59,367 nucleotides of DNA from a virus (taxonomy: Duplodnaviria > Caudoviricetes): IMG/VR virus record IMGVR_UViG_3300037244_000010, positions 1 through 59,367 of that record, one strand, 5' to 3'. This document shows positions 27,380 to 47,057 of the stretch, one piece after another (the first letter of the stretch is position 1; every line of letters begins with the position of its first letter). A program made the position numbers and the translations under genes. The notes beneath the pieces are model-generated. The model had not been told where the DNA came from. It made no database searches and saw only the letters and a list, made by a program, of their open reading frames with translations.

Positions 27380-29139
27380 GCGAAGACGATCAAACATCCA
27401 TCCTGAAGGTTCTCGTCCAACTCCGCGACGAGGTTACTGACCCTCTAAAGCAGGTCAATGACCGATTCAGCGAGATGGCGGAGAACTTCGCCAGCATTGG
27501 GATGGCGGCCGGCGAAGTGTTTGCCGGATACGAGGCGCTGAAGACAGTCATTGAGCCAGCCGCCGCCATGCAAGAGCAGATGGTAGGCCTGAAAGAGGCC
27601 ACTCTCGCCAATGCGGATGCGATGGAACGGTATAAGCATCAGGCTGACGAGATTGGAACTTCCTTGCCATTGAAGGGCGGCGCAGAAGAAGCAATGCAGG
27701 CAATGACGGAACTGTACAAGACGTTCCGTGACGATGGGGCGATCAAAGAACAGACCGAGACCGCAGCAAAATTAGCCGTAGTCATGGGAGACACGGCGCC
27801 TCTTGCCGCGAAAGTTCTGTCTTCGGCAGTCCAGAACCTCGGGGATAATAGTCGCCCCGTTATCGACCAAATGAAGGAGTTTGGCGACGAGATTGCCGTT
27901 CTTCAGGCGCGCTTCCCGATGGGCAGCGGTGGCCTGATGCGCATGTCAATGGCGCTCAGAATGCTCGGCACAGCGGCACAAGTCAACAATGTCGCGCAGA
28001 AAACAATGCTCGCACTGATGGCCGAGGGCAACAGAATCAACCTTGGCGGCCCGCGCGGATCAGGCCCCATCCTGGCTGGAATCGTTAACTCTCTGCTCAA
28101 AATGAAAGATGGTCGCTACGAAATGGAGAAGTATGGCCTCCAAGTCGTAAAGACGAATGATGGGCACGTCAACCTTATCAAGACCCTTGAGAAGATGAGC
28201 GAACTGTCTGACAAGCAGAAGCGATCCCTTGAGTCTTCGATGGGAAGTCAAGGGGCCAATGTAGCACTGCTTATCAAGCACATGGACGATTTGAAGGAGG
28301 CATACAACGAAATAGACAATGCGAGTGGGCAATTAGATCAGGATGCGAAAGACCGCGCTGCTACCTTTGATGCGCACATGCAGGAAATGAAAAGCGCATG
28401 GCAGGAATTCAAGGAGTCCATCGGGACTCGTATCCTTCCTGATCTGACTACCGACATTAACCAGATGACGGAAATTATAAACAAGATGAACGAGTTTTCC
28501 GATAAGCATCCGACTGCGGCGAAAGTTGCCGGAAGAGGTTTGGAGCTTGGAGTAGGAGCGGGAATTTTAGCAGCGGCAGTAAAATTAGGGCCGATGATGT
28601 GGAAAGGTCTCGGAGGCGCCGCCGCTCTTGGGTGGGCGCGCAGTTTGTTCCCGACCGCGGCAAAGACTCTAACGGCGCGAGAAGCGATGTATGGGGGCGG
28701 CAGAGCCGCTGAAGCGGCTGGACTCTCAAGATTTCTCCCGTTTATTGGGGAGGCGGTGACCGGTGGGATGTTGGGGTGGCAGGGAGGCCACTGGATGCAA
28801 AGGCATGACGTTGTCGGATTTGAAGCCTATCAAGGCATGCAGACTCCAAAACCCTCAGTATTCGCAGATTGGAAGGGGCCTACCCAGGCTCCCATATTCG
28901 GCATTTATGGATGGGATACTGAGGCATTCGGATCGCCGCGATTGGCGACTCCTACATTTGGTCCGACCTCGCCCTTTTCCGCGCTGGGAACTTCGGGAAC
29001 CGTAAACAATAATCCGAATATCAATATCTACCCTCCAAGCCAAGAAATGGACCCAAAAGCGATGGGAGATATGGTTGAACGGGAGATTGAGAAGTACAAC
29101 CAGCAAAATGCCCGTAAGCAATTAGGGGGGGCGCGCTAA
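27376..29139 (+). CDS. Tape measure protein
   Basis: Helical Ala/Met-rich 587 aa after chaperones; GGAGG RBS then TTG. Confidence 0.85.
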   Translation: MSEDDQTSILKVLVQLRDEVTDPLKQVNDRFSEMAENFASIGMAAGEVFAGYEALKTVIEPAAAMQEQMVGLKEATLANADAMERYKHQADEIGTSLPLKGGAEEAMQAMTELYKTFRDDGAIKEQTETAAKLAVVMGDTAPLAAKVLSSAVQNLGDNSRPVIDQMKEFGDEIAVLQARFPMGSGGLMRMSMALRMLGTAAQVNNVAQKTMLALMAEGNRINLGGPRGSGPILAGIVNSLLKMKDGRYEMEKYGLQVVKTNDGHVNLIKTLEKMSELSDKQKRSLESSMGSQGANVALLIKHMDDLKEAYNEIDNASGQLDQDAKDRAATFDAHMQEMKSAWQEFKESIGTRILPDLTTDINQMTEIINKMNEFSDKHPTAAKVAGRGLELGVGAGILAAAVKLGPMMWKGLGGAAALGWARSLFPTAAKTLTAREAMYGGGRAAEAAGLSRFLPFIGEAVTGGMLGWQGGHWMQRHDVVGFEAYQGMQTPKPSVFADWKGPTQAPIFGIYGWDTEAFGSPRLATPTFGPTSPFSALGTSGTVNNNPNINIYPPSQEMDPKAMGDMVEREIEKYNQQNARKQLGGAR

Positions 29140-32265: not shown

Positions 32266-32715
32266 ATGGCAACGACTTTCCCATATGCGACCCTCACCAA
32301 CATCCAGTCGTCGAGCTGGGAACTGATGCTTGACTCGACGGCTGGAGGCTGTGCGGGATCAGGACTCGGAAAAGTTTGCCAATCCTACGCGGATGTTCAT
32401 CAATGCCTCAAGATCATCTTTTCGACAATTCCTGGCGAAGATCCATTCCGTCCTACTTTCGGATGCGACCTGACGCAGTTCCTTGACCGCCCACTCACTG
32501 TTGCGATTCCGGCCATCATCGGTGCCATCTCCGCGGCTATTGCCGACTGGGAACCACGTATCACCCTTGAGAGCGTCGATGTTGTCGCCAGCACAACGAA
32601 CATCGGGACTCTGACCGTGACAATCAACTGGAAGCCGGACATGGGGTCGAGCAGTTCTGCCACGACTACGATAGGCACAGAGAGCACGACAATATCTGTC
32701 GGAGGATCTTCTTAA
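32266..32715 (+). CDS. Baseplate wedge gpW/gp25-like
   Basis: DVHQCLKIIFSTIPGEDPFRPTFG..WEPRI. Confidence 0.9.
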   Translation: MATTFPYATLTNIQSSSWELMLDSTAGGCAGSGLGKVCQSYADVHQCLKIIFSTIPGEDPFRPTFGCDLTQFLDRPLTVAIPAIIGAISAAIADWEPRITLESVDVVASTTNIGTLTVTINWKPDMGSSSSATTTIGTESTTISVGGSS

Positions 32716-34002
32716 ATGCCGGTCATAATCCCCGCGAACTCGTTCCCGCCGGCCACCGGCACTCCTCAGACAGTTCCCGTTGACCTGCCCACGCCTTCAT
32801 TCGTCAACGACTCAGACGGACTCGATGCAACGCTGGTCCTGAACGACATGGTGAGCAAGTTCGAGACGGACACCAGCAGGACCCTCTACCCGGCCCAGGT
32901 CGAGCAGTTGCTTATCAACCTCTACGCCTACCGCGAGATTCTGGTCCGGAACGCGATTCAGTATTGCGGACTTCAGAACCTGCTCGCATTCGCCGTCTAC
33001 CCGATGCTGGACTACCTCGGCGAGTATCTGGATTGCACCAGGCTTCCCGCGCAGTACGCCACCACGACATTGCAGTTCACGCTCACGGCCGCACAGTCGT
33101 CCGACACCACGATAGCCTCTGGCACGCAGGTCGGGACTCAAGACGGCCTCAACATCTTCGCCACCACCTCGGCGCTCACGATTGCTGCCGGGCAGACGGT
33201 TGGCACCGTAGCGGCGCAATGCACCACGGCAGGACTCAGCGGCAACGGCTACCTCGCCGGACAGGTCAGTGTCCTGATGGGCTCGTTCCCGCTTGTCTCT
33301 GCTGTCGCCAACACGACGACCCCGGCCAACGGAACTGACGGTGAACCTGCTGGCACTACCGCAGGAGACAACCACTACCGCACGCGCATTCAGGCAGCCC
33401 CGAACAATCTCACGACCGCCGGCCCGTCTGGCCAGTACCGATCTCTCGCGCTTGACGTGAGTTCGACCATCGTTGACGCGCAAGTCCCGACAAATCCGAC
33501 AACGCCGGGCACGGTGCAGGTCTACGTCCTGACAGGACCCGTAACGCAGCCGTCCGCATCCCCAAACAGTTCTGGCATCGCATCCGGTACTCTACTTTCC
33601 GCTGTTCAGTCGGCGCTCAGCGCGCAGACTGTGAGGCCTCTTTGTGATACCGTTCTAGTCTCGGCAGTGACCGAAGTTGATTACACCGTGACCGGGGCGA
33701 TCACACTCTACGCGAACGCCAACTATGCGACGATTGCCGCTGGAATCACCGCAGCGGCGCAGAATCTTGCCTTGACGCTCGCTGCAAATATTGAGCAGGA
33801 TATAGTCCTGAGTCAGTGGCAATCGGCTCTCAGCGTGTCGGGGGTCTACGACATGCAACTGACACTTGCTGCGAACATCGGCGGCACACCACTCACTCCA
33901 ACTTCGGACGGCAGTTTCTTGCTCACAGCGGGACAATGGGCGAACTGCATAGGCATCAACCTCACAATCGTTATGGGCACAAAAAATCAGCCAGTTAGCT
34001 AG
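32716..34002 (+). CDS. Baseplate J-like protein
   Basis: RTLYPAQVE, QNLLAFA, LDYLG, YRTRIQAAP..TAGP..Y, PGTVQVY, VRPLCD. Confidence 0.92.
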   Translation: MPVIIPANSFPPATGTPQTVPVDLPTPSFVNDSDGLDATLVLNDMVSKFETDTSRTLYPAQVEQLLINLYAYREILVRNAIQYCGLQNLLAFAVYPMLDYLGEYLDCTRLPAQYATTTLQFTLTAAQSSDTTIASGTQVGTQDGLNIFATTSALTIAAGQTVGTVAAQCTTAGLSGNGYLAGQVSVLMGSFPLVSAVANTTTPANGTDGEPAGTTAGDNHYRTRIQAAPNNLTTAGPSGQYRSLALDVSSTIVDAQVPTNPTTPGTVQVYVLTGPVTQPSASPNSSGIASGTLLSAVQSALSAQTVRPLCDTVLVSAVTEVDYTVTGAITLYANANYATIAAGITAAAQNLALTLAANIEQDIVLSQWQSALSVSGVYDMQLTLAANIGGTPLTPTSDGSFLLTAGQWANCIGINLTIVMGTKNQPVS

Positions 34003-34021: not shown

Positions 34022-37000
34022 ATGAAACGAATTGCGCCCTTTCTTTTCCTGATCTTGTCAGTTATCACATGCTTTGCTCAGACCCAGATTGACCCGACTT
34101 ACCAGATTCGGTGGAACGCTCTTGCTTATCCTGGCGCGCCTGCTGCAAACGGGATCACATGCACCCAGAACGGAAACTACGCGATTTATCCTTACGGCGC
34201 AGAGTGGGGGCAGTCTTATCAGGACACGACGAATAATGTCGAGTACAAATGCACAACATCTGGATGGGTGAAGAATCTACCCACGACAGGCGGCACGCTG
34301 ACCGGCCCACTCAACGGCACCAGCGCATCGTTCTCAGGCACCGTCGCGTCTCCCGCCATAGTGCCTACCAATATCACTCCCAGTACGTCTCCAATCTGTG
34401 CCAACGGCACAGGCGGGGCACTTACAACTATGGGGTGCGGTGGTGCAGGCGTAACGCAGATCATACCTGGGACAAACGTCACCATTTCGCCTAGTGGGGG
34501 CACAGGTGCAGTAACAATCAACAGCACAGGCGCTGGCTTGCCGACAAACGCTGTAGTTGCGTGGGCTGGTGATTCACGGTTCTGGGTTTCCGGATCCAAT
34601 TCCTCCGCTGGCACTGCGGAGGGATCGATTACTTCTGGCTCTGTATCGGGCGGAGTACTGACTGCCCAGGTCGGTAATCTGTCAAACTCGACTCCATCTT
34701 ATGCGGGCACAATCTATAAACTTTATGGATTCACAGGCGCATACGCTGCCTTGAACGGTCAACATGTAACGGTCACTTCGGGCTCATCCTCACAGTTTGT
34801 GGCCACCGTGACCGGCGTCTCTGATGGCACGACGGTTGGAACAGGTTCGTTCATTGCCGATAGTATGGCCTTTGCAGTGTTTGGTACTAAACTTCCAAGC
34901 ACAAGCAGTTCTGTTTTTGTGGATGTTAGTACAGGTGTCGAAACTACCACAGATACCTTTATTGCCGCCTATCTATCAAAGCTGCACCCCATTAGCCCGG
35001 CTGTGACCGGATCGACAGGCTATCTGGTGCTGCAATTGGGCATCAACGATATTGTGACGCTGGAAAGCGCCTCTGCCGCTTATGTTGAAAACAACTATCT
35101 AACGATATGGGCAATGGCTCATGCCGATGGCTGGAAGATCCTCCAGACATCACTGATACCATATGGCACAGATCAGGGGCGGCTCTCCACAATCAATGAA
35201 GTCAACCTTTGGCTCCGTGGACGTTCCCCACAGGATGCAGTAACCAACAGCCAGAACTGGGATATCTTTGACGATGTTGCTCAGATACTTCCCACCGACA
35301 CGGATGCAGCGGTCTTTATGCAAACCGGCTCGCCCAATCCTCACCATTTGAACGATAGTGGAAACAACTTGCTGGCCGCATCGGTGGCGCAGGGCTTATC
35401 CTCCCCGCTCTCTTCTTTGTATTCTCTCAATGCTGATTACAATTTTGGATTAAACTGGGCGCTCATCAACGGAGGCACCCTTACCAACCAAGGTCTTATA
35501 GTGGGGAACAATGCATCTATATCACCCATCGGTAACGGTAGCATCGCGGCAACCTCTTTAGACGGTGTCACGGTGTCCGGCACACCTACTCCAGGGCAAT
35601 CTGTGATTGCTTCTGGGTCTACCTCAGCAGTGTGGGGGTATGTACCCTGTGGATACAACGATATTCCATGCACTGATGCTGCTAATAGCTGGTTTGGAAC
35701 TCAGACGTACACTACGTCTGGCCCTGCCTCACCAGCCGTAATCGAGAAAGGCTCCGCTGGTGCGATCTCTTCGGTGTTTGTGCAAAGCGCATTTGTCAGT
35801 ACTGGTTCTCCCTATACTCTGTCTTTCACGTCCCCTGTAACCGCTGGCGATACACTGCTGGTGTTTGAGACATCAGACTATGGCACAACAATCACAGACA
35901 CTCTGGGTAACACCTTCACTGGTGTTCCCGGATGTGGGACTAGTGGCTGTGGCAATCCCTTTTCGACCGCGATGGCCTATAGCGCAACTGGCGGGGCAGA
36001 TACAATAACTGTAACCCCATCTTCGTCACAAAGTTTTTATGTCTTGATTGCTGAGTACCGCGGTCCCCTATCTGTATCTCCTCTGGATGGTACTCCAGCT
36101 AACACAGACAACAACTTTAGCACCGGCTCAGGCGGCGCAACTACAGTCGGTCCTATAACCACTGTGGCGAACGGTGATTTGATTATCACCGCTACATCCA
36201 CGGACAACAATCTGGGAGCCCCTAGCGTTGCAGGATTCACAGCACGTGATTCCACCGATAAACTCAATCTTTACGACACAATACAAGTCTCGGCAGGGAA
36301 CCAATCCGCTGCTTGGAATTGGGCTACGGGTTATGGACGGTCAGTAGGTACTCTGTTCGCGCTCAAAGCACAAACCCTCTCAGGTCAAACCGCCGACTTG
36401 CATCAGTATGAATCAGCTGCGGGAGCCTTGGTAGGCGCGGTGAACGCATACGGGCAAATCCAACTTCCTACTGCCTCCAACTTACCAACCAACACCCCGG
36501 TTGACTCTGGTGTTGCGCTTGCGGCGGACACTACCTGCACGAGTTTACTGGCGGTCTACACCGGAAGCGCGTGGGAGTGCCTGCCAAGTAATCCTGGCAC
36601 AGTAACCAGCGTAGGCTTGACCATGCCGGGAGTGATTTTCAATTCCACGGTGCCTGGCTCTCCTGTGACGACATCTAGTACACTAGCACCAACTCTAGCA
36701 ACACAGACAGCAAATACTGTGCTGGCCGGTCCTGCGACCGGAAGCCCGGCAACGCCTACATTCCGAGCGTTGGTGAGCGCCGACATCCCAAACAATGCGG
36801 CGAGTACCACAGGCACAGCGGCTAATCTGAGCGGCACACCCGCCTTGCCCAACGGCACGACGGCCACGACTCAGAGCGTGGCGGACAACAGCACGAACCT
36901 GGAAACCACTGCGGGAACACTAGCTAAGATTACGGCCAAAACCTTGAGTTTGAATGTCCCTGCTTGGCTGCAAAATCTAGGCGACGGCTCGGACGGTAAC

Positions 37001-38374
37001 AATCTGACCGCCTATGCGGCCCTGACCGGCGACTTGTACTACAACAACTTCACCGTGCCGTATGGAAACACGGTAACAAGCAGTGCATACCAAGGTAGCC
37101 TAACCATCCATGCAAAAGGTACCTGCACGATTGCGGGATTGATAACCAGCACGAATAATAACTATATAAGTAACGGCCTTTATGGCGGGTCTTCCGGTGC
37201 AACTGGCGGGGGAACGTCGGCGGGTTCTGCGGGCAAAAGCACTCTCGGACCGCCTGGGATGAGTTCTTATGTCTGGGGCGGTATCACTATTGGAGCCGCG
37301 GGGCAAGCGGGAGGCGGTTCCGCATGGTCAGATCAAGCGCTAACTGGCGGAGCTTTGACAGAGTGGGCAAGAGTGGTTGCTACAGCTGGAGGAGCCACGG
37401 ACGGGCAATTCCTAGGCGGTGCTCCGAGTGCGGCAGGAACTAGTAGTTCTCAAGGTTCGGGAGTTACTCTGATCTGCGGCTCGATTGTGGGCACCGATGG
37501 TACACACACCGGCATCATTGATATGAGTGCTTCTCCCTCATCACCTCCTACCGCCAACAACACAGGCGCACAAGCGGGCGGCGGTGGTGGAGTTGTGCTG
37601 CTCTCGTCACAGTCCGCAATCGCCACGCCTCCGCTAGTCTATGTGGCTGGTGGCGCGGCTGCAATCGGCTCCGCCATCCTCACCACACCGGTCAATGGCA
37701 CGTTTACGACAGCGACGACAGGCGGTTCCTTAACAGGTTCCACAAGTTATTACTACACCGTTGTGGCACACAAGGGGCCAAATGGCTCCACGGCGCAGTC
37801 TACCGAAACCAGCCTTGCAACAGGCGCAGGAACCAACACCAATACCATTACTGTAAAATGGGCGGTCGTTCCTGGGGCGCAGAGCTACGACATCTGCGGC
37901 CGCACAACTGGCTCAGAGCAGCTGATTGCGACAATACTGAATAATGGTGCTGGAAATAATCCTCTGGCTACCCAGTATGTGGATACCGGCTCCATCACTC
38001 CTAGCGGAACGTGCTCAACTACAAACACTACATCTGGCTGGTTTACCACGCCGCAGGCCTTGAGCCACGGCGGCACCTGCACAAGTCCTGCCAAGCTGCT
38101 GCTGGGTGTTACCTCTGGCGCTCTCAATGGCACAGCAACGGTGATTCAAGCCGGTGCTGGGTGCGGCACGGGAACTGGAGTGCAATGGAGTGTGTTAGGT
38201 GCTGGCGGAACATTGGGCACAGGCACGGTTAATCCAACATGGTCTGGCGGCTCGGTCGTATCGGCTACCACAACCCCGGGCACAAGCTCAGGCTACACGC
38301 CAGTCAATTACACCGTCTCTGGTGATGGCGGAGATGGCTCCCCGGGCGTAACCGCAACATTTCAAGGATGGTAA
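34022..38374 (+). CDS. Large fibre/adhesin-like protein with Sec signal peptide and SGNH hydrolase domain
   Basis: MKRIAPFLFLILSVITCFA|Q; SGNH blocks AGDS, LGIND, HLNDSG; fibre-type motifs GGTLTGPL, GTVTSVGL, PTFRALVSADIP; Gly-rich and FN3-like regions. Confidence 0.8.
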   Translation: MKRIAPFLFLILSVITCFAQTQIDPTYQIRWNALAYPGAPAANGITCTQNGNYAIYPYGAEWGQSYQDTTNNVEYKCTTSGWVKNLPTTGGTLTGPLNGTSASFSGTVASPAIVPTNITPSTSPICANGTGGALTTMGCGGAGVTQIIPGTNVTISPSGGTGAVTINSTGAGLPTNAVVAWAGDSRFWVSGSNSSAGTAEGSITSGSVSGGVLTAQVGNLSNSTPSYAGTIYKLYGFTGAYAALNGQHVTVTSGSSSQFVATVTGVSDGTTVGTGSFIADSMAFAVFGTKLPSTSSSVFVDVSTGVETTTDTFIAAYLSKLHPISPAVTGSTGYLVLQLGINDIVTLESASAAYVENNYLTIWAMAHADGWKILQTSLIPYGTDQGRLSTINEVNLWLRGRSPQDAVTNSQNWDIFDDVAQILPTDTDAAVFMQTGSPNPHHLNDSGNNLLAASVAQGLSSPLSSLYSLNADYNFGLNWALINGGTLTNQGLIVGNNASISPIGNGSIAATSLDGVTVSGTPTPGQSVIASGSTSAVWGYVPCGYNDIPCTDAANSWFGTQTYTTSGPASPAVIEKGSAGAISSVFVQSAFVSTGSPYTLSFTSPVTAGDTLLVFETSDYGTTITDTLGNTFTGVPGCGTSGCGNPFSTAMAYSATGGADTITVTPSSSQSFYVLIAEYRGPLSVSPLDGTPANTDNNFSTGSGGATTVGPITTVANGDLIITATSTDNNLGAPSVAGFTARDSTDKLNLYDTIQVSAGNQSAAWNWATGYGRSVGTLFALKAQTLSGQTADLHQYESAAGALVGAVNAYGQIQLPTASNLPTNTPVDSGVALAADTTCTSLLAVYTGSAWECLPSNPGTVTSVGLTMPGVIFNSTVPGSPVTTSSTLAPTLATQTANTVLAGPATGSPATPTFRALVSADIPNNAASTTGTAANLSGTPALPNGTTATTQSVADNSTNLETTAGTLAKITAKTLSLNVPAWLQNLGDGSDGNNLTAYAALTGDLYYNNFTVPYGNTVTSSAYQGSLTIHAKGTCTIAGLITSTNNNYISNGLYGGSSGATGGGTSAGSAGKSTLGPPGMSSYVWGGITIGAAGQAGGGSAWSDQALTGGALTEWARVVATAGGATDGQFLGGAPSAAGTSSSQGSGVTLICGSIVGTDGTHTGIIDMSASPSSPPTANNTGAQAGGGGGVVLLSSQSAIATPPLVYVAGGAAAIGSAILTTPVNGTFTTATTGGSLTGSTSYYYTVVAHKGPNGSTAQSTETSLATGAGTNTNTITVKWAVVPGAQSYDICGRTTGSEQLIATILNNGAGNNPLATQYVDTGSITPSGTCSTTNTTSGWFTTPQALSHGGTCTSPAKLLLGVTSGALNGTATVIQAGAGCGTGTGVQWSVLGAGGTLGTGTVNPTWSGGSVVSATTTPGTSSGYTPVNYTVSGDGGDGSPGVTATFQGW

Positions 38375-38376
38375 AC

Positions 38377-38649
38377 ATGGCAGACTTTGGCAGTTTGACG
38401 ATAAACAGCGACGGCAGCGCGACTCTGAGCGTGACATTTGATATCGCAGGCGTCCAGTGTGACCCATCGCTGGCAGCCAATGACACGGACTTTCCTCTGC
38501 CGGTGCGGGCAGATGGCAACGGTAATATCATCCCTTGGACACAGGCCGCGGCTCAAGCTACGCTGGGGCCACAGATCGCAGCAGCTAAGGCGGCATTTCT
38601 TGCGGCTGCTCCGGAATGGATACCAACCCTCCCTGCATCTGGGGAGTAG
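38377..38649 (+). CDS. Hypothetical protein (fibre-associated)
   Basis: Directly after the fibre gene. Confidence 0.6.
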   Translation: MADFGSLTINSDGSATLSVTFDIAGVQCDPSLAANDTDFPLPVRADGNGNIIPWTQAAAQATLGPQIAAAKAAFLAAAPEWIPTLPASGE

Positions 38650-38814
38650 TGGCACAGAACGAAGGCTAGGAGGCCTCATGGCAACACCAATTCCTTGTGC
38701 AGCCACCACACCAAAACCAATCCCCAATAAGTAGCCGCAGTTGTCCGCACTGCGGTGCCTGAGCAGGACCGGCATCTACGATAGAGAGATAGGCCAAAGG
38801 AGGGCCTGAGCAAC

Positions 38815-39948
38815 ATGGCAAACAATCTCAGGCCTGCGTCATCGATCAACGACCTCAGAACTCAAGCGCACATGCAACTATCTGCACGACTTGAGTCGCT
38901 CGACCTGACGCCCCTGCTTATCAGGACTCTAGGAAACAACCTCCCGGCATCCATCTTGCCCTACTTGACATGGGAACTAGACATGATGGTGCCGAGTGTC
39001 CCGATGCAGCAGCTAGGGGCTACGGCGTTAGATGTTATCCAGAACGCCCTACCTCTGCATCGCATCAGTGGCACTCCTGGCGCAATCATCCATGCTCTTG
39101 CCTTGTGCGGCATAACAGCAACGATCTTAGAGGGTCAAGACTCATGGGGAGGTACTTCATATCCAGCCAGTCAAGGATGGGCTGTCTTCAGGGTGGGATT
39201 TACCGGTGCTGGGATGGCCCCCGCTGGACTAATCAACGGAACCAATATGCACTTTGTTCTTCCTGAGACGCCAAACGGTAACTCGCTCCGAGTCTTCTAT
39301 AACGGACTCCTTCTGCGGCCGACGACAGACTATGGAGTTTCAGGACTCAACATGACCACGGCATTCGCGCCGGCTACGAACGCGACGCTCTTGATTGTGT
39401 TTCGCAGCGGCACATCCATCCCACTATATTTCGATGCCATTGTGCCAACAGTCTCAGGCTCAAATCTAACTTTTCCTGAGACGCCGGTCAGCATTGAATT
39501 GTATAAGAATGGCATATTGCAGAGTGGGGGATTGAATGCAAGTCAGCTTTCCGCACTGGAGATCATCGTCAACTTCTTCAAGCCAGCGCGGTGCCTATTG
39601 GATTCCGTTTATGCCTTAGGTGGCAAGGATTACTCGATTTCGGGGAACACGGCGGCGCTGACGGTTGCTCCGAAGTCTACCGACTCGTTCATTGCGTGGG
39701 GAACTTACGCGGGCACAGGCACCGCGCCGAACTACGCTGACTATGTGACGCCGACAGGACTCGTAAACGGCTCCAATACCGTGTTTACCCTTCCCCAAGC
39801 TCCGAGTCCTGCTGCCAGTCTCAGGCTGTACCGAGGATGGCAAGTACTGAAGCCGGGAGGGGTTGACTTCACCTTGAGCGGCGCAACGATCACCTACACC
39901 ATCGCCCCGGCGCCCACGGCCACGCATCTAGCCTTCTACCGCTACTAG
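38815..39948 (+). CDS. P2 gpI-like baseplate/tail protein with added repeat modules
   Basis: LDLTPLL..LPYLTWELD..LHRISGTPGAI; modules NGxN..F.LP..P..SLR...NG....DY..SG. Confidence 0.8.
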   Translation: MANNLRPASSINDLRTQAHMQLSARLESLDLTPLLIRTLGNNLPASILPYLTWELDMMVPSVPMQQLGATALDVIQNALPLHRISGTPGAIIHALALCGITATILEGQDSWGGTSYPASQGWAVFRVGFTGAGMAPAGLINGTNMHFVLPETPNGNSLRVFYNGLLLRPTTDYGVSGLNMTTAFAPATNATLLIVFRSGTSIPLYFDAIVPTVSGSNLTFPETPVSIELYKNGILQSGGLNASQLSALEIIVNFFKPARCLLDSVYALGGKDYSISGNTAALTVAPKSTDSFIAWGTYAGTGTAPNYADYVTPTGLVNGSNTVFTLPQAPSPAASLRLYRGWQVLKPGGVDFTLSGATITYTIAPAPTATHLAFYRY

Positions 39949-39950
39949 GG

Positions 39951-40032
39951 TGCGGTACAATCGGCATTGACGGGTACAGAACCAGTCTGACTCGCCACAT
40001 GACCTTGATAAGAGGATCAGTGGCGAGTCTTT
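39951..40032 (+). promoter_or_regulatory. Late leader element C
   Basis: TACAAT-7nt-GACGGGTAC-hairpin-terminator GACTCGCCAC/GTGGCGAGTC-TTTCACTTT. Confidence 0.8.
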
Positions 40033-40051
40033 CACTTTGGAGGGAACACTG

Positions 40052-40336
40052 ATGGAAACGAAGATTGAACCGAACGAAACCGCTATTGTGACTCCTGTTA
40101 TGCTGCCAGCCTGCCCGTACTGCGCAGACGATCCGGCCCGGCTCTCGATCATGAACCAGATATTTCCCGGCGGCATGATTGGTGCCATCATCTTTTGCGG
40201 AAACCCAGAGTGCCGGAAGATCATCTCGACGCAGATCGTTGGGCGTATCGAGCAACAGACGGTAAATCAGGACTCAAAACCGCAAGAGGCCGTAGTTGCT
40301 GGCCCACAGTTGGTGAAGTCTCCGGAGGCCCTGTGA
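40052..40336 (+). CDS. Small Zn-binding hypothetical protein
   Basis: GGAGGG RBS; CPYC..CGNPEC. Confidence 0.7.
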   Translation: METKIEPNETAIVTPVMLPACPYCADDPARLSIMNQIFPGGMIGAIIFCGNPECRKIISTQIVGRIEQQTVNQDSKPQEAVVAGPQLVKSPEAL

Positions 40337-41406
40337 ATCGATCAGTAAAGCGCATCATTGCCCTCGCCGCTCTCTGGCTGTGCGCGGCCTTCGCCATCGC
40401 CCAGGCTCCTATCGGGGTCTGCGTCAACAACGTTGCACAGACCATCTCGAACGGCGTCATCGCTCCGATACCCTACGCCACGGTTGCGCTCTGCACACCA
40501 GGGTCGACTGCGTCCAACTGTGTTGCAAACAAGGTCAGCATCTACACCACGACAGACCTCAGCACGGCAACCCCCACAAACCCATTCACGGCCGATGCCG
40601 GCGGCAACTACTACTTCTGCGCCCACGTGGGGCATTACGGACTCCTGATCAACTCCTCGTATGGTCAGTATTTTGTTCCCGATGTGACCTTGGTTGACAA
40701 CTGGGCGGCCGGCGGCACAATGACAGGGACACTCACTGACGCCGCAGGATTCATCGGGCCGCTGACCGGCAACGCCACGACAGCCTCCGCGTCAGATCAC
40801 ACTCCGACGCAATGCGGATCAGGACTCTACTCGCAAGGCGATACCACTACATGGGCAGCCAACTGCTCTCAGGTCCTGTGGAACCAAATAGGCGGTGACC
40901 CTGCACTGGTGACGAGTTTCAATACCCGCACGGGAGCCGTGACGCTGACCGCCGCTGATGTGGATGCAGTCGGCAACATCACCAATAGCACGAGCGGCAA
41001 TGCTGGGACGGCTACAGCGTTTGCGAATGCCCCAAGCGTACTCACGAGTCCTGCCGTTGCCAAAGGTGTGGACGCATCTGGAAACGCGATTGCTCAGACC
41101 TTTGCTGGCACGATGGCCGCTTCTGGTTATACGACTCTACCTGGCGGTGTCATGCTGCAATGGGTGCAAGGGTCCGAAATGTCGGCAGTTGGGACTGAGA
41201 CTGTGAGCTGGACCGGGACAGTTCCAAATGGCTGTCTTGGGGCATGGGTTAGCACGATACCGAGCGGCGGCATCGGAGACGGAACTTCACTCAGCTATTT
41301 CACGATGGTTTCATGGAACTCTTCGGGGGCTACGGTGTCATTCCAGCGTAACGCCGATCACACCTTTTACCCGGCAACCCCCATTGTTTTTGGCATTTGC
41401 TACTAG
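40333..41406 (+). CDS. Tail fibre-like protein with Sec signal peptide
   Basis: GGAGG then GTG; MNRSVKRIIALAALWLCAAFAIA|Q; VTSFNTRTGAVTLTAADV fibre repeat; C-terminal GYTTLPGGVMLQW fibre-tip motif. Confidence 0.8.
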   Translation: MNRSVKRIIALAALWLCAAFAIAQAPIGVCVNNVAQTISNGVIAPIPYATVALCTPGSTASNCVANKVSIYTTTDLSTATPTNPFTADAGGNYYFCAHVGHYGLLINSSYGQYFVPDVTLVDNWAAGGTMTGTLTDAAGFIGPLTGNATTASASDHTPTQCGSGLYSQGDTTTWAANCSQVLWNQIGGDPALVTSFNTRTGAVTLTAADVDAVGNITNSTSGNAGTATAFANAPSVLTSPAVAKGVDASGNAIAQTFAGTMAASGYTTLPGGVMLQWVQGSEMSAVGTETVSWTGTVPNGCLGAWVSTIPSGGIGDGTSLSYFTMVSWNSSGATVSFQRNADHTFYPATPIVFGICY

Positions 41407-41415
41407 GGAGTAAAA

Positions 41416-41757
41416 ATGGTTGAGCGCAGAACGAACGTAAGCCAATTCGCCGGGGTGAACGCTCTCCAAAAAGACATTGAGCGGCTAACCAAAGAGCGTG
41501 ACGCCTTCGCCAAAGAGCGAGAGAATGCGCAGACAAGGCTACTCGAAGAGCATGGCGTAGCGCTGGCAGCACTGAAGACCGACCTTACTTTGATGGTAGA
41601 GCGCACGAAGGATCTTCCTGCTGCTATCGAAAAACTTAACACTCGACTGACCTCCCAGGAACGGTGGAAGATCCTCATGACCGGTTACGCGGCCGCCTTT
41701 GGCATCATGGGAGCATTCCTGGGATGGGTTACAAATTTGATCTTCCGCGCGCACTAA
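41416..41757 (+). CDS. Coiled-coil protein with C-terminal TM helix (lysis cassette, holin-like)
   Basis: Hydrophobic C-terminus; precedes endolysin. Confidence 0.6.
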   Translation: MVERRTNVSQFAGVNALQKDIERLTKERDAFAKERENAQTRLLEEHGVALAALKTDLTLMVERTKDLPAAIEKLNTRLTSQERWKILMTGYAAAFGIMGAFLGWVTNLIFRAH

Positions 41758-41839
41758 AACGGGTACGCCATGGATATACCGAGTCCCAATCCGGAATGGC
41801 CCCGCGATCTTCCGCAACCCGACGACCTATGAGGGCAAC

Positions 41840-42352
41840 ATGAACAGCTTTCCAAAGATCGACGTACTGGCTGCCTGCGCAAAGTATGGCCCGGTATTGA
41901 AAGTCCCGACAGGACTCGACGGTGAACGTATCATGGCCTCCCTGGCTTCTAACGAGAGCAGCACTGGCAACGACTGCGGGCCGCGGCATGAACCCGCATA
42001 CGACGTAGGCGGTTCGGTATGGGCTTCGAGTCCTGCGCAGCGCGCGCTCGTGGCCCAGTACGGTCGTCTCGGGGCCTCCAGTTTTGGCCCATGGCAACTC
42101 ATGCTTATCAACTACCCAGGGTTCTCGCCGGCAGAACTAGAGATCAACCTCGACGACTGTGCCCGCGGATGCGTCAGCCACTTCAATTCCTACGTGGCGC
42201 ACTTTGAGCCCAAGAACCTCGTGGAGATCGGTCAAATCTGGAACCTCGGCCACAAGACGGTCAACCCTACGGCTGGCGTTATCAAATACTGCGCCGATTT
42301 GCAAAAGGCGTACGATTATTCTGTGAAGCAACCCGCTTCGGCGGTATCCTAA
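41840..42352 (+). CDS. Endolysin, lysozyme/lytic-transglycosylase-like
   Basis: ASNESS (catalytic Glu), SSFGPWQLM, WNLG motifs. Confidence 0.7.
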   Translation: MNSFPKIDVLAACAKYGPVLKVPTGLDGERIMASLASNESSTGNDCGPRHEPAYDVGGSVWASSPAQRALVAQYGRLGASSFGPWQLMLINYPGFSPAELEINLDDCARGCVSHFNSYVAHFEPKNLVEIGQIWNLGHKTVNPTAGVIKYCADLQKAYDYSVKQPASAVS

Positions 42353-42367
42353 AGCGAAGAGGGCAGC

Positions 42368-42613
42368 ATGAAGCTACCTGAGCCCTTCTGGGCAGTTCTA
42401 CTCGCAGTTCTGGGGGTGATCGTTGCATTGGCCGTCCTTTTTCACCCGGACCCGGTCGCAGTTGGAACCGCCGTCCTCGCAATCGCCTCCAACCTCGTCA
42501 GCGGCGCCCTCGGAGCCTTTGCCGGTCATGCAAGCCAAACCAGCAACTCCACAGGACCCAACGCAACAATCAACAACCCTGGAGCCACCTTTCCCGGTGA
42601 CGCAAACAAGTAG
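42368..42613 (+). CDS. Putative holin (2 TM)
   Basis: Two hydrophobic helices; next to endolysin. Confidence 0.65.
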   Translation: MKLPEPFWAVLLAVLGVIVALAVLFHPDPVAVGTAVLAIASNLVSGALGAFAGHASQTSNSTGPNATINNPGATFPGDANK

Positions 42614-42632
42614 CGCCAAGGAGGCGCAAGAC

Positions 42633-43082
42633 ATGGGATTTTCAATCAAGGCAGTCATCAGCGACATTGAAGGCAGCGAAAAGACCTTCGTTAGCTTCCT
42701 GGTCAAAGAGTACGCGGAGTTCTACAAGAATGAACCCACGCTGATTCAGACCGTCGATACTGTGGTCAGCTATACGGAGGACGGACTTGCTATCGTTCTT
42801 CCGTTGGCCGGAGAGGGCGCATTGGCTGGCCCCATCGATGCCATCGTAGAAGAGGCTGTAACTGACCTCAACCGTGCCTCGGCTTTGGTGTACGACTTTG
42901 GCCCGAGCCCCACCGCAGCTTCGATCTTTGCCGCTGTGCAGTCCAATCTCGTGGCTTTGGAGACGGCAGGCCACATCACAAACCCCGCCACGATTGCCAA
43001 ACTCAAGCTCATTATCAACGCTATCGGCACGGTTGCTCAGCTGATTGCCAAGGCAGTTGCTGCGGCAACTCCATCGGCCTAA
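42633..43082 (+). CDS. Hypothetical protein (lysis region)
   Basis: AAGGAGG RBS; amphipathic Ala-rich. Confidence 0.7.
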   Translation: MGFSIKAVISDIEGSEKTFVSFLVKEYAEFYKNEPTLIQTVDTVVSYTEDGLAIVLPLAGEGALAGPIDAIVEEAVTDLNRASALVYDFGPSPTAASIFAAVQSNLVALETAGHITNPATIAKLKLIINAIGTVAQLIAKAVAAATPSA

Positions 43083-43152
43083 TACGTTCACTGCACCACT
43101 TCATACGGCAGCCGGTCTCGCAAAGGACCGGCTGAATTTTCGGAGGTACACC

Positions 43153-43884
43153 ATGCGCCCTATCTCCATCACCATCGGCATAATCTCCGCAGCCTTGCTC
43201 GGCTTGACCGTGTGGGGAGCGTTCGGGATATCGCACCATTTGATCGTGGCCGTAGACAAGTGGGGAAACTCCGCGCCGGGGCCAGAATTTTCACAAACAA
43301 TCAAGGACGCGCACCAGGGCATTTTAGACGTTACAGCCGAGAGTCGCGACGTTACCATTGCCGTGCTCAAGCCGTGCAAGTTGGGGCGCCCTGAAACTTG
43401 TGGACTGATTCCGGCGGTTCGGATGACGGTGCAAGACACCGGCGCAGCTGTCCAGACAATGCAACAGCAGGTGGCACAGACGCAACCGCTCATCACGGCG
43501 GCGGCGCAGAACCTCAATCTGGCTGGCGATGCGGTAAAGGATACAGCGGGACACCTGTCTAAGACGGCTGACGCGGCCACTGTAGCCATTCAGACAGTCA
43601 CGATAGATGCCAAGACGGCCAACGACTTGCTGATGCAGTTGAGGCCCCTCATAGCCAGCTACACAGCCACCGGAAATGACCTGGATACCACTATCAAAAC
43701 CGCCAACGACATCATGGCAAGTCCAAACGTCACGATCATGCTGGCGAACGGAGCGCAGTTCACTACCACGGCGGTTCAGCTTGAGCAAAAGTTGGCTCAA
43801 TGCACGCTACACCCAACGCTTCCTTGCGTGCTAAAGAGCGACATTCTCTTCGGAGCACAGGTGGGCGGTTACCTTTTGAGATGA
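43153..43884 (+). CDS. Membrane-anchored coiled-coil protein (spanin-like)
   Basis: GGAGGT RBS; N-terminal TM then long helical region with two Cys pairs. Confidence 0.55.
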   Translation: MRPISITIGIISAALLGLTVWGAFGISHHLIVAVDKWGNSAPGPEFSQTIKDAHQGILDVTAESRDVTIAVLKPCKLGRPETCGLIPAVRMTVQDTGAAVQTMQQQVAQTQPLITAAAQNLNLAGDAVKDTAGHLSKTADAATVAIQTVTIDAKTANDLLMQLRPLIASYTATGNDLDTTIKTANDIMASPNVTIMLANGAQFTTTAVQLEQKLAQCTLHPTLPCVLKSDILFGAQVGGYLLR

Positions 43885-43970: not shown

Positions 43971-44015
43971 GATAAATAGTCAAAAGTGAAGCAAAATATG
44001 GTTTATAATGCAAAA

Positions 44016-47000
44016 ATGATCGACTTATCAACTCGCCTCCTTCTACTCAACCGCAGGACCCGGATTCAGCGTCCTGTAGAGAATCTGAATGCTTATCAAG
44101 AGGTCTACACCTCACTTTCCAGCCTTCAAGATGAGGCGGTGATGTGCCCGCGGTCGATGAAAGAGCCGATGCGGGAGGCCATGGAGCGCGTCCGGTCAGA
44201 GGTGGGAGACTTGGACGAGTTCGTGGCCCGCGAACTGGAGTACCCCTCGGTCAAGGAGATGCAGAGCTACTTCATGGGCCTCCAGGTCGATTCGATTGCC
44301 CTGGCCATCTGGCAGATCAGGAAACAGAAGTCGCTTATCGACGCGGACCAGACCGGAGTTGGCAAGGGCAGAGTAGCGGCGGCCGTCTGCCGGTGGACGA
44401 TCCTCCATGGCCTTCTGCCGATCTTCGTCACCTACTCAGATACCCTCTTCACCGACTTCCAGCGGGATCTTGACGACATTGGCTTCGGGACGAGCGTCTG
44501 GCCGCTGCTCTTCAATGCGGGGGCGTCGATAACCGAGCAGGCAACAGGACGCAAGATATTCGCTAACAAGAGCAGCATGAAAGGGGTCCTGACTCGCATA
44601 TCCGAGACGGGCGGGCTGCCCCGTGCCCGCAATGCCGTATACCTGACCTACTCGCAGATCAACACGATCAACATCCAGCAGGAGGCCCTGAGCCGGTTGG
44701 CGCCGAAAGCCGTCTTCATCCTTGACGAGTCCCACAACGCCGGCGGCGACGACTCGAACACTGGCACATTCTTCCAGGAGGTTCTGCCCGCGGCGCACGG
44801 CGTGATGTTCATGTCGGCAACGTGGGCGAAGCGGCCGGACAATATGACGCTCTACGCGACAAAGACAGACATCTCGATTGCAATTCACGACAACCAGCGC
44901 GTCTCTGACGCCATCCGCGCCGGCGGTCCACCCCTACAGACTGTCGTGAGCCATCAGCTCGCCCAGGCAGGCCAACTCGTGCGGCGTGAGCGGTCCTTTG
45001 AGGGCATAAGCATCTTGAATTTCATTGACGACCGGAATCAGCTTTATCAAGAGCAGGTGTGCGACGATGTGACAGAAGTCCTGCGGGCCATATTCAAGGC
45101 GGATCAGGACTATCATCAGAACGATTTCGAGACGTTGCGCCTCCAGTACAAGAAGCGGCACATCAAAATCTACCACCACAAGTTCAGCGCCATCGTCCAC
45201 AACATCGTGAAGCAGTTCCTCCTGGCCTTGAAGTCGGACGCGGCGGCGGATTGCGCCATCGAAGCGCTCGGCCGCGGAGAGAAGCCGATTGTGGCCCTTG
45301 AGAGCACCATGGGGGCGTTCCTCGACAGCTATGTGAGCGCGGCGAACCTGAGCGAGGGCGAAGTGCTTGATAAGCTCTCATGGTCCACCATCCTCAGACG
45401 TGCGCTCGACAGGACCCTCCACTACACCATCAAGACCTCAATGGGCAATGACCGTCAAGAGTTCCCGCGCCATCTGCTCTATGTCGAGACGGAGGCCAAG
45501 TACCGGGAGGCTGAGCGGCTGCTGGACGCCCTTGCGGTGACGTTGCCAGTTTCGCCTATCGACTGGATCAGGACTCGCATCACGCAAGCTGGCTTTACCG
45601 TGGCAGAGATTACGGGGCGTTCCTACCGAATCAACTATGCGGGCCCCGTCCCGGTTCTGTCTTCAGTGCCGTCCAGCGAACGCAAGGACCGCGTGCAGAC
45701 GGGGAGCTTATTCAACAATGGCGGTGTCGATTGTCTCATCCTCAACCAGGCCGGTTCTACGGGAATCAGCCTTCACGCCTCCGAGAAGTTCAAAGACCAG
45801 CATCAGCGGCACATGATCGTTGCCCAGCCGGCCGGCGACGTGAACGTGTTCATGCAGATCCTCGGACGTTCGAACAGGACCGGCCAGATGGTCCTGCCAA
45901 GGTACACGATGCTCTCCCTGGCCATCCCCGCAGAGATTCGCCCGGCCATCAGCCTCGCCAAGAAACTGAAGAGCCTGAACGCCAACACGTCGAGCAACAC
46001 GCGGTCGGCAATGTCGATTGAGGCGCCAGACATGATGAACAAGTACGGCGACAAGATCGTGGCGGAATGGCTGCACGAGAATGAGCAGATTGCCCGTCTC
46101 ATGGGCCTCACGATGGACAAGTCGGAAGAGGAAGGGGGTACTCCAGAGGAGGACCTGGCGCGCACGGCAACAGGACGCTCGGCATTGCTTCCCGTCAAAG
46201 AGCAGCGCGAGTTCATGGAGACGATCACCGAAAGCTACACGGACTACATCGCCTACCTCGACGAAACCGGGCAGAACGACCTTGAACCCAAGACCTACAA
46301 CTTCGATGCAGAGCATAAGACCTCGCACGTCATATATGTTGGGTCTGATCCTTCATCGCCATTCGGGGAAGATGCCATCTTCGGAACCTACTCAATCAAG
46401 CGTCAAGGCAAGTCCTACACCCCGGAAGAGGTCGAGGAACTCATTGCACAGACTTATGGTCCTGACCTCATGAAGTACGAGCCATGGCAGCGGGACACGT
46501 ACCACGCGCGGGCCTTGAGCGCACACCTTGAGGGCTTGTTCAAGCCATACATTGAGGGCGTGGAAGCCCCACACATCTTTGATCGAGCGCAGAAAATCAG
46601 GGAATGGTCACGGTCGATATTGAACGACTTCCGAATGGGAACAGGACTCAGAATCGAAATCAACGGAGACACCTACAACGGCATCATCTACGACATTCGC
46701 GGCCGCAAGAAAGTAAGCGGAAACCCCTACGCTCCCAGTTCGCTGAAGTTCTACATTGCAGTCAACGGGCCTTTGCGCGAGGTGCGCGTACCTGGCTCGC
46801 AGATCAAGAAGATTACGCTGTCGAACCTTGGACGCAATGCGGATATTGCTGAACTGTTTCAGGACTATCTAAGCGACACTCGGCAGCGCGCCAAGATCAT
46901 CACCGGGAATCTGCTGGGAGCTTATGGGCAGTTGAAGCCGGGGAGCAAGGGAAGAATTATCACGTTCACAAAGCATGAGGGCGGCACAGAGCAGGGAATC

Positions 47001-47057
47001 TTGATGCCAGCACGGTTCGATTGGGAGAAGGACGTCACCCCGCAGAAGCTCGATTGA
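44016..47057 (+). CDS. Strawberry-notch-family SF2 helicase-like protein
   Basis: DQTGVGKGR, TYSQ, LDESHNA, MSATWAK, AEITGR, GSTGISLHAS, QILGRSNRTGQ; TATAAT 6 nt before ATG suggests a leaderless mRNA. Confidence 0.88.
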   Translation: MIDLSTRLLLLNRRTRIQRPVENLNAYQEVYTSLSSLQDEAVMCPRSMKEPMREAMERVRSEVGDLDEFVARELEYPSVKEMQSYFMGLQVDSIALAIWQIRKQKSLIDADQTGVGKGRVAAAVCRWTILHGLLPIFVTYSDTLFTDFQRDLDDIGFGTSVWPLLFNAGASITEQATGRKIFANKSSMKGVLTRISETGGLPRARNAVYLTYSQINTINIQQEALSRLAPKAVFILDESHNAGGDDSNTGTFFQEVLPAAHGVMFMSATWAKRPDNMTLYATKTDISIAIHDNQRVSDAIRAGGPPLQTVVSHQLAQAGQLVRRERSFEGISILNFIDDRNQLYQEQVCDDVTEVLRAIFKADQDYHQNDFETLRLQYKKRHIKIYHHKFSAIVHNIVKQFLLALKSDAAADCAIEALGRGEKPIVALESTMGAFLDSYVSAANLSEGEVLDKLSWSTILRRALDRTLHYTIKTSMGNDRQEFPRHLLYVETEAKYREAERLLDALAVTLPVSPIDWIRTRITQAGFTVAEITGRSYRINYAGPVPVLSSVPSSERKDRVQTGSLFNNGGVDCLILNQAGSTGISLHASEKFKDQHQRHMIVAQPAGDVNVFMQILGRSNRTGQMVLPRYTMLSLAIPAEIRPAISLAKKLKSLNANTSSNTRSAMSIEAPDMMNKYGDKIVAEWLHENEQIARLMGLTMDKSEEEGGTPEEDLARTATGRSALLPVKEQREFMETITESYTDYIAYLDETGQNDLEPKTYNFDAEHKTSHVIYVGSDPSSPFGEDAIFGTYSIKRQGKSYTPEEVEELIAQTYGPDLMKYEPWQRDTYHARALSAHLEGLFKPYIEGVEAPHIFDRAQKIREWSRSILNDFRMGTGLRIEINGDTYNGIIYDIRGRKKVSGNPYAPSSLKFYIAVNGPLREVRVPGSQIKKITLSNLGRNADIAELFQDYLSDTRQRAKIITGNLLGAYGQLKPGSKGRIITFTKHEGGTEQGILMPARFDWEKDVTPQKLD

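Follow-up and report, generated by a model that had tools for sequence, protein, structure and literature searches.

Conserved Sec-type leader peptides on the candidate receptor-binding proteins of a contractile-tailed phage

Introduction

Do the receptor-binding proteins of a tailed phage ever pass through the secretion machinery of the host on their way to the virion? The question is raised by two genes, open reading frame (ORF) A and ORF-B, in the baseplate region of the virus record IMGVR_UViG_3300037244_000010 (Duplodnaviria; Caudoviricetes), the whole 59,367 bp of which form the window analysed in the present study. Both genes encode fibre- or spike-like proteins that begin with a stretch resembling a bacterial signal peptide. 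Tail fibres and tailspikes are regarded as assembling in the cytoplasm, and one report takes a lack of signal peptides as support for the phage origin of variable proteins (PMC6199706). An earlier, sequence-only reading of the window had nevertheless proposed that both proteins carry cleavable Sec leaders and mature outside the cytoplasm. In the present study, the leaders, their conservation, the proteins behind them and their genetic setting were analysed, and the explanations compatible with them were weighed.

Results

Leaders and start codons of A and B

The two genes and their leaders are located as follows.

34022-38374, plus strand: ORF-A, a spike-like protein of 1450 aa in which a Sec-type leader and a small conserved N-terminal domain precede a variable body with a probable enzyme module
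34022-34078, plus strand: leader of A, residues 1-19 (MKR, hydrophobic stretch, CFA), with predicted cleavage before Gln20
40333-41406, plus strand: ORF-B, a tail-fibre protein of 357 aa that starts at a GTG, bears a Sec-type leader and takes the gpH position
40333-40401, plus strand: leader of B, residues 1-23, with predicted cleavage between AIA and QAP

The N-terminus of A reads MKRIAPFLFLILSVITCFA followed by QTQ, and that of B, with GTG read as Met, reads NRSVKRIIALAALWLCAAFAIA followed by QAP. Both leaders consist of a basic n-region and a 16-residue uncharged stretch, and they end in CFA (A) or AIA (B) directly before Gln. The sequence-only reading had described exactly this layout, with a basic n-region, an h-region, small residues at -3/-1 and Gln at +1, and both its sequences and its coordinates proved accurate. 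Two other signal types were considered and rejected. A lipoprotein signal was dismissed because the +1 residue is Gln and no lipobox is present, and the Cys17 found in each leader is not conserved. A Tat signal was dismissed because neither n-region contains RR.

The start codons were then inspected. The ATG of A lies 19 nt past the gpJ stop codon (34000-34002), with AAGGAG 8 nt upstream, and no earlier in-frame start was found upstream. The GTG of B overlaps the TGA of a conserved 94-aa ORF (GTGA), with GGAGG 4 nt upstream. In four relatives (L043, L045, L046, and L047), the B frame opens at the leader Met directly after a stop codon; a longer B frame from the TTG at 40195 was therefore dismissed. 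The next in-frame starts are codon 12 of A, which falls within the h-region, and then codon 83 of A and codon 99 of B. Because codons 83 and 99 lie deep in conserved sequence, a leaderless isoform would lose the conserved domain, and a true start downstream of the h-region, which would have undone the earlier claim, was not borne out.

Leaders were called with a heuristic of our own, based on n-, h- and c-regions and a -3/-1 rule and distinct from SignalP. It flagged three of the 56 window ORFs of at least 100 aa, namely A, B and a membrane-anchored 243-aa protein (43153-43884). It flagged none of eight leaderless canonical fibre-like controls, which comprised five database proteins matched by the A or B searches and three fibre-position genes of the nearest genome-derived prophages. 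As judged from the sequences, the leaders of A and B are signals of the Sec/signal-peptidase-I type, and their start codons are well supported.

Conservation of the leaders in the two protein families

Among the 71 database proteins of the B family that were examined, 61 contained the mature N-terminal motif, and 58 of these had a -3/-1 site within the first 40 residues. Residue -1 was Ala in all 58, residue -3 was Ala, Cys, Ser, Thr or Leu in all 58, and residue +1 was Gln in 55, Thr in two and Val in one. The three exceptions comprised two proteins with a long upstream extension, in which the leader still directly preceded the domain, and one protein with Pro at -2/-3. The 58 proteins carried 54 distinct leader sequences with a median length of 21 aa, and the net charge of the n-region was +1 to +4 throughout. 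The uncharged h- and c-region stretch measured 14-18 residues in 55 of the 58, with a median Kyte-Doolittle hydropathy of 2.34.

A similar result was obtained for the A family, in which the leader directly preceded the QTQIDP domain in 13 of 13 database proteins and in 9 of 9 aligned loci. In the nine relatives, A19, Q20 and T21 were invariant and the h-region was variable. The pairwise identity of the leaders was 0.40 in the B family versus 0.71 for residues 24-120, and 0.43 in the A family versus 0.61 for the conserved domain. The leaders thus changed faster than the domain behind them, and their hydrophobicity was kept. Such drift of a hydrophobic leader, with the cleavage site held in place and the mature end behind it conserved, is characteristic of functional signal peptides.

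The mature N-domain of B was also searched with HMMER against 1.84 billion representative proteins, which yielded 57 matches. In the 40 matches inspected, the domain always began approximately 17-30 residues from the N-terminus, and 35 passed the heuristic; of the other five, three were fragments, one had been given a wrong upstream start, and one lacked a charged residue in its leader. A full-length leaderless form of the domain was not found among these 40. Even distant proteins with the B domain, ranging from 127 to 907 aa, carried a leader before it. What had been claimed for A and B alone therefore extends to their homologs, on which Sec-type signals are conserved (58/61 and 13/13). These sequence comparisons, which are stronger evidence than the heuristic, indicated that the leaders are not chance features.

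Architecture of B

Behind the leader, two conserved or recognisable parts of B were delimited.

40402-40887, plus strand: N-terminal module of B (residues 24-185), conserved and containing six invariant Cys
41107-41403, plus strand: C-terminal receptor-binding foot of B, residues 259-357

Structure models were obtained for B and for the N-terminus of A; both are monomers with low mean confidence (58.5 for B and 56.3 for A). The foot of B was modelled with a pLDDT of 72-88 (residues 261-357) and matched the R1 pyocin fibre 6cxb with a VIA Z of 11.7 (rmsd 2.1, 91 residues aligned), the R2 pyocin fibre 6ct8 with a Z of 10.1, and AP22 gp53 (4mtm) with a Z of 9.4. Residues 31-124 form a beta domain resembling the particle-binding domains of podovirus tailspikes, with VIA Z values of 6.0-7.6 (7.6 for Pan3, 7.1 for Sf6, and 6.5 for P22), a range below 8 in which, as the tool itself warns, a score can reflect a common arrangement. 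A PDB sequence profile returned 7eeq at an E of 0.13. The middle of the protein is a Gly/Thr-rich shaft that was not resolved in the monomer model (pLDDT 30-46).

In family searches, B matched PHROG 4209 (tail fiber) at 3e-06 and Pfam Gp53-like_C at 20.3 bits, under the cut-off of 24.9, and eight homologs carried a precomputed PF21882 assignment. Among the relatives, the N-module was kept and the C-terminal part was swapped (identity 0.23). A complex prediction for three chains of B residues 24-190 and the full-length gpI-like protein (9-row alignment) returned "no answer" with a score of 0.00, which speaks neither for nor against binding.

Architecture of A

In A, the following regions were recognised.

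34079-34279, plus strand: N-terminal domain of A (residues 20-86), conserved, in which C47 and C77 are invariant
34568-35362, plus strand: probable SGNH/GDSL esterase region of A, with GDS at 183, GIND at 340 and HH at 441

Besides the leader, only the N-terminal domain of approximately 67 residues is common to the A family, and the remainder differs between relatives; identity was 0.61 in this domain versus 0.24 in residues 95-153. The AF2 model of the domain had a pLDDT of approximately 75-80 for residues 30-85, and Foldseek searches of BFVD and the PDB with the A N-terminal model returned nothing at E <= 0.001. The best fold match, a collagen XV/XVIII trimerisation domain (E 0.66-1), was not relied on.

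The body of A gave a Pfam Lipase_GDSL_2 match of 21.5 bits over residues ~180-450, under the cut-off of 32.9. In a homolog with the same N-terminus (P0010), the GDSL domain scored 56.5 bits, and the A homologs of two relatives (L017 and L044) gave endosialidase N-extension or pectate-lyase-like matches at or just under the cut-offs. On these sequence matches, A is probably a member of a modular spike family in which esterase (a probable one in A itself) or pectate-lyase-like modules are swapped. A as a whole matched no Pfam or PHROG family, its sequence matched none in the PDB, and residues 140-800 gave no usable match in the protein atlas. Three proteins matched in the A search (P0018, P0023, and P0024) showed 58-59% identity over 4-5% of A and had ordinary leaderless fibre N-termini. 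If the matched part is the C-terminal body of A, modules move between leader-bearing and canonical fibres.

Cysteine content

Mature A contains 16 cysteines, arranged in close pairs, and mature B contains eight. The core proteins of the same phage contain far fewer, with one in the 769 residues of the sheath, one in the 530 residues of the capsid protein and none in the 587 residues of the tape measure. The Cys richness that the sequence-only reading had pointed out in both proteins was confirmed. Six Cys of B were invariant in 21 sequences, and C47 and C77 of A were invariant in nine.

Position in the baseplate block

The genes surrounding A and B are listed below.

32266-32715, plus strand: gpW / gp25-like baseplate wedge protein, no leader (Pfam GPW_gp25, 2.5e-16)
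32716-34002, plus strand: gpJ-like baseplate protein, no leader (Pfam Baseplate_J, 7.5e-45; PHROG 6, 2e-64)
38368-38649, plus strand: 93-aa ORF, ATG within the final codons of A, no leader, no family match
38815-39948, plus strand: gpI-like baseplate protein, 377 aa, no leader (Pfam Tail_P2_I, 1.9e-08)
40052-40336, plus strand: 94-aa four-Cys ORF (CPYC...CGNPEC), translationally coupled to B, no leader

The block thus reads gpW-gpJ-(A)-gpI-(small ORF)-(B), which agrees with the earlier placement of both genes in the baseplate J/I cluster. Searching the whole 59,367-bp genome, we found no fibre-like or spike-like gene other than A and B, and the earlier remark that no signal-less fibre of the P2 gpH type is evident held at that scale.

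A profile of B led to 49 related viral contigs; since these loci were found via B itself, its presence in them says nothing about universality. In the close relatives, the gene order was W-J-A-I-small ORF-B-d1-d2-d3-d4, and in the distant relatives (L042-L050), it was W-J-I-small ORF-B, with A-type genes after B. The order I-small ORF-B was seen in all loci covering that stretch. This synteny, in which B follows I and the small ORF, puts B where P2 gpH would lie and makes A a movable second gene for a candidate receptor-binding protein. Both proteins combine a conserved N-terminal module with mosaic C-terminal parts, which is the usual pattern of virion-anchored receptor-binding proteins.

In three distant relatives (L044, L046, and L050), every ORF of at least 200 aa after gpI carried a leader according to the heuristic (4/4, 4/4, and 3/3, respectively), and in L040, three of the five ORFs in the block did. 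The tape measure, gpU, gpD, gpV, gpJ and gpI of L044, L046 and L050 had no leader at the annotated start. Two stray flags were recorded, one for gpI of L046 from an internal alternative start and one for a 210-aa upstream ORF in L044. In the stretches 11029-17825 of L044, 11048-16214 of L046 and 10920-17833 of L050, two or three more leader-bearing ORFs (264-1258 aa) follow B in a row, and several of these begin with the A-type motif QT[QK][IV]NP.

The gpI-like protein comprises a gpI domain (residues 16-111) followed by a 260-aa C-terminal extension, which is possibly a docking platform or a short fibre of its own. Three similar beta-rich segments with the motif ...NG.N..F.LP..P......Y.NG... 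were noticed in the extension, with a weak CBM_X2 match of 18.7-20.3 bits, under the cut-off. In all 49 related loci, the 94-aa ORF immediately precedes B. It matched no Pfam or PHROG family and looks zinc-ribbon-like by eye; it could encode a fibre chaperone, an adaptor or a leader-binding factor. The 93-aa ORF was found only with the same A variant, in one locus (L002), and may be a cognate accessory of that A C-terminal module or not a gene.

Relatives outside the viral contigs

Searches beyond the related contigs were largely negative. A tblastn search with B and the A N-terminus gave no match in 50,697 phage records, and the B profile found no relative in one genome for each of 185,579 species. 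A gpJ profile matched six loci only, the best being prophages in metagenome-assembled genomes (MAGs) of Ca. Binataceae with 52-55% identity. One of these prophages (L051) has, between gpW and gpJ, an ORF of 534 aa (8093-9694) whose N-terminus is arginine-rich and leader-like; a Pfam scan of it was negative. This ORF hints that exported proteins in baseplate operons may occur beyond the present viral clade.

Lysis genes

Downstream of B lie the following genes.

41416-41757, plus strand: 113-aa coiled-coil protein with a C-terminal membrane segment, a possible lysis or assembly accessory (no family match)
41840-42352, plus strand: 170-aa probable endolysin of the SLT/muramidase type, no leader, as a lead only (protein atlas feature score 0.95 to SLT/Muramidase clusters)
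42368-42613, plus strand: 81-aa membrane protein, holin candidate (hydrophobic N-terminus; only weak matches to domains of unknown function)
43153-43884, plus strand: 243-aa protein with an N-terminal membrane anchor

As judged from the sequence, 41416-43884 is likely a lysis block. No lipoprotein spanin was seen in it, and the only lipobox-like match between 41400 and 44000 falls within an N-terminus that is not hydrophobic, that of the endolysin-like protein. The latter had no Pfam or PDB sequence match. Since the probable endolysin lacks a leader, lysis would be holin-dependent. The atlas row for this protein also gave a hint of Acidobacteriota as the host, which is a lead only.

Genome and record

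The window spans the entire IMG/VR record, which has direct repeats at its termini and which CheckV rates as 100% complete. The exact terminal repeat measures 98 bp and lies within a 33-bp tandem array found at both ends of the window (1-341 with 10.3 copies and 59241-59367 with 3.8 copies); the repeat may therefore merely mark the cut point of a circular assembly. A minus-strand ORF (59153-59332) translates the array as repeated MKPTRRRRPRL. From its genes, the content looks complete for a contractile-tailed phage (myovirus), and the principal features are as follows.

1039-2249, minus strand: AntA/KilAC antirepressor and RNase H-like protein
2944-3408, plus strand: phage-encoded ferritin/Dps-like protein (Pfam Ferritin, 4.6e-25)
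4406-6136: terminase large subunit
7344-9008: portal
15223-16857: head protease
16924-18516: capsid-like protein
23633-25966: sheath
25977-26498: tube
27376-29139: tape measure
43986-47057, plus strand: Strawberry-notch-type helicase (AAA_34 and Helicase_C_4)
46869-49490, minus strand: 873-aa fusion of a helicase and an N6/N4 DNA methylase, convergent with and adjoining the Strawberry-notch-type helicase

A Mu-F-like protein and an adaptor are also encoded, and gpU, gpX-like, gpD, gpV, gpW and gpJ were all recognised in the tail region. The replication and modification arm comprises DnaB, the Strawberry-notch-type helicase and the helicase-methylase fusion; the ORFs of the latter two, as listed, overlap by ~190 nt at their 3' ends. 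Among the ORFs scanned, no integrase was recognised and no phage-encoded Dsb protein or signal peptidase was seen. Promoter-like and terminator-like consensus sites numbered 7 and 10, compared with 7.2 and 11.3 in shuffles, with a consensus that may not be that of the host.

Discussion

Proposed assembly pathway

Sequence and comparison show directly the leaders and their conservation, the fibre- and spike-like architecture and folds of the proteins, where their genes lie, and the lack of any further fibre gene. The comparative pattern, in which a conserved N-module with a mosaic C-terminus, the gpH position, a pyocin-type foot and the lack of other fibre candidates coincide, favours the view that A and B are virion receptor-binding proteins. 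We propose that Sec exports them, that they fold oxidatively, and that they attach to fibreless particles upon opening of the membrane by the holin, and we assign this reading a probability of roughly 0.45.

We infer a course for export, cleavage, disulfide formation, trimerisation, docking, their timing and virion attachment. The leaderless core tail and baseplate proteins of the late operon (tape measure, U, D, V, W, J, and I) would form fibreless particles in the cytoplasm, and pre-A and pre-B would be exported via SecYEG. Signal peptidase I would cut after Ala19 of A and Ala23 of B, and the N-terminal Gln thus exposed could cyclise to pyroglutamate. The 16 and eight cysteines would form disulfides, and the chains would trimerise in the periplasm. 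When the holin opened the inner membrane for the leaderless endolysin, the particles would meet the exported fibres, and the conserved N-terminal modules of A and B would dock on the baseplate. In phage T4, fibres join finished fibreless particles spontaneously. Such a pathway might bring two gains, as the fibres would be stabilised by oxidative folding and the enzymes could act on the envelope of the dying cell before release. In a broader form, which we advance a shade more tentatively, a whole clade of contractile-tailed phages would have all of its receptor-binding fibres and spikes (two to four per genome) exported, cut by signal peptidase I, disulfide-bonded, trimerised and added at the holin breach, as in a two-compartment assembly line.

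Several points weigh against this proposal. We know of no tailed phage that adds exported fibres to its particles, and fibres attaching late would do so inefficiently because lysis dilutes them. If the small ORFs coupled to A and B encode fibre chaperones, these would be in the wrong compartment, since neither ORF has a leader. The likeness of the B N-domain to head-binding domains is only middling (Z below 8), and the modelled N-domain of A matches no known fold in the searches made. A leader precedes the B N-domain even in distant proteins, so it may be a general extracytoplasmic domain and not a baseplate-docking one. The Ca. Binataceae MAG prophages, which are the nearest gpJ relatives, have ordinary leaderless fibre genes after gpI, which makes the leader a derived trait of this viral clade. 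The pathway presumes a host with a periplasm. Finally, the sequence-only reading had reasoned from disulfides to the periplasm; the Cys richness stands, and the step from disulfides to that compartment is weaker than was assumed. A siphovirus tail tube is reported to have inter-ring disulfides (PMC13576161), so Cys in virion proteins alone do not imply a periplasmic step.

Alternative explanations

An unlikely yet substantial alternative is that A and B are exported accessory proteins and not parts of the virion, which modify or mask envelope polysaccharide receptors from the periplasm or the cell surface, with adsorption left to the gpI-like extension. Their role could be superinfection exclusion, protection of the progeny from debris or loosening of the matrix. 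The leaders would then be just as real, the probable esterase of A and the pectate-lyase-like modules of its relatives would have an obvious use, and the gpI-like protein, with 260 of its 377 aa in a repeated beta-rich extension, could serve in attachment. Leader-bearing morons also occur in phage tail regions, lambda lom being an example. Exported proteins of comparable build are found in bacteria, namely the Tat-exported, tailspike-like and glycan-modifying WceF (PMC7949094) and the MAT fibres of Bdellovibrio, which are cell-surface adhesins of the same architecture (PMC10769870). However, this explanation leaves the phage without a recognisable fibre or spike, and it does not account for the location of B exactly at the gpH site with a pyocin-fibre foot. 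A conserved N-module with a mosaic C-terminus is the pattern of virion-anchored proteins, and both genes are packed into the late operon (19-nt gap and 4-nt overlap) with promoter- and terminator-like sites not above shuffles.

It is less probable still that A and B enter the virion after ordinary fibre assembly in the cytoplasm, as in other tailed phages, with a leader that is not used for export during infection. Sec might be overwhelmed or blocked late, or the 94-aa Cys-rich protein might hold the leader, which would then act as a membrane tether or a hydrophobic N-terminal plug. All well-studied tail fibres are known to assemble in the cytoplasm, the 94-aa ORF, which is translationally coupled to B, occurs in every related locus (49/49), and neither small coupled ORF has a leader. 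An unused leader, however, would not be expected to keep Ala at -1 and a permitted residue at -3 in 58 of 58 proteins and Gln at +1 in 55 of 58 while its h-region drifts. The uncharged stretch, at 14-18 residues, is short for anchoring a protein stably in a membrane, and the even Cys number of each mature protein and the invariant Cys fit an oxidising compartment. An artefact of miscalled starts or chance hydrophobic N-termini is close to refuted. B does use a GTG start, and the leaders were called by a heuristic and not by a trained predictor, but Shine-Dalgarno sequences precede both starts, no upstream start exists for A, the relatives' frames open at the leader Met, no usable downstream start is available, conservation extends over 54 distinct leaders, and the heuristic passed 0/8 canonical fibres and 3/56 window ORFs. 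The remaining probability lies with mixtures, for example export of part of the pool as free enzyme, and with options that were not considered. Export followed by attachment to the virion thus remains our preferred explanation.

Implications

If the proposed pathway is true, it adds a new step to tailed-phage morphogenesis, and infectivity depends on Sec, signal peptidase I and the Dsb system as host factors. The recognition of receptor-binding proteins in metagenomes would change, as filters that discard secreted proteins would miss them. For engineering, the proteins would represent naturally disulfide-stabilised and export-competent fibres. They would also connect the fibres of phages to those phage-like fibres that bacteria export (MAT and WceF), which suggests a route from one kind to the other.

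Comparison with known systems

The closest counterparts of B are P2 gpH and the R-type pyocin fibre (PA0620 and PALES_06171), with which it shares the gene position after gpJ-gpI, the foot fold and the combination of a conserved N-part with an exchangeable distal part. P2 gpH and R-type pyocin fibres assemble in the cytoplasm and are not known to have a leader. Unlike them, B has a 23-residue Sec-type leader and a Cys-rich N-module, and its gene is separated from gpI by a small Cys-rich ORF. The tailspikes of podoviruses (P22 gp9, Sf6, and the cyanophages Pan3/Pam1) are likewise not known to carry a leader. Their head-binding domain is resembled to a middling degree by residues 31-124 of B, and the A family has bodies of the depolymerase or esterase type; unlike the podoviruses, the phage described here is contractile-tailed. 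In filamentous phages, the virion protein pIII binds the receptor, has a Sec leader and disulfides, and is assembled at the membrane. Those phages are extruded, contain single-stranded DNA and form no cytoplasmic particle, in contrast to the tailed double-stranded DNA virion encoded here.

Late phage proteins that are sent to the periplasm via host Sec before lysis are also found among the endolysins. A phage endolysin with a Sec-type leader has been described (PMC8951688), and the class of Sec-exported and signal-arrest-release (SAR) endolysins is named in a further report (PMC7143992). In this respect, these resemble A and B, but they are lysis enzymes and not structural or receptor-binding proteins.

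Two bacterial systems resemble A and B in other ways. The MAT (mosaic adhesive trimeric) fibres of Bdellovibrio bacteriovorus have a signal peptide, a conserved beta-rich N-terminal domain, a phage-like trimeric fibre and mosaic tips, and they demonstrate that phage-like trimeric fibres fold after Sec export (PMC10769870). The likeness to A and B lies in the architecture. MAT fibres are encoded by chromosomal genes of a predatory bacterium and serve its own surface, whereas A and B belong to a phage baseplate operon. WceF of Pantoea stewartii is an exported trimeric protein of the tailspike fold that acts on exopolysaccharide (PMC7949094), and it gave a weak structural match to the N-region of B (Z 4.8). 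It differs from A and B in carrying a Tat and not a Sec signal and in being encoded in a bacterial biosynthesis cluster and not in a phage.

A full-text literature search, which mostly excluded subscription journals and likewise supplements, turned up no tailed-phage fibre or spike described as bearing a Sec leader. Each of the two elements is familiar by itself; provisionally, the systematic union of fibres and Sec leaders in a phage clade appears to be new. Taken together, the sequence comparisons suggest that B works like, and in part is, a gpH/pyocin-type fibre without the leaderless N-terminus of that type, and that A works like a tailspike with exchangeable enzyme bodies.

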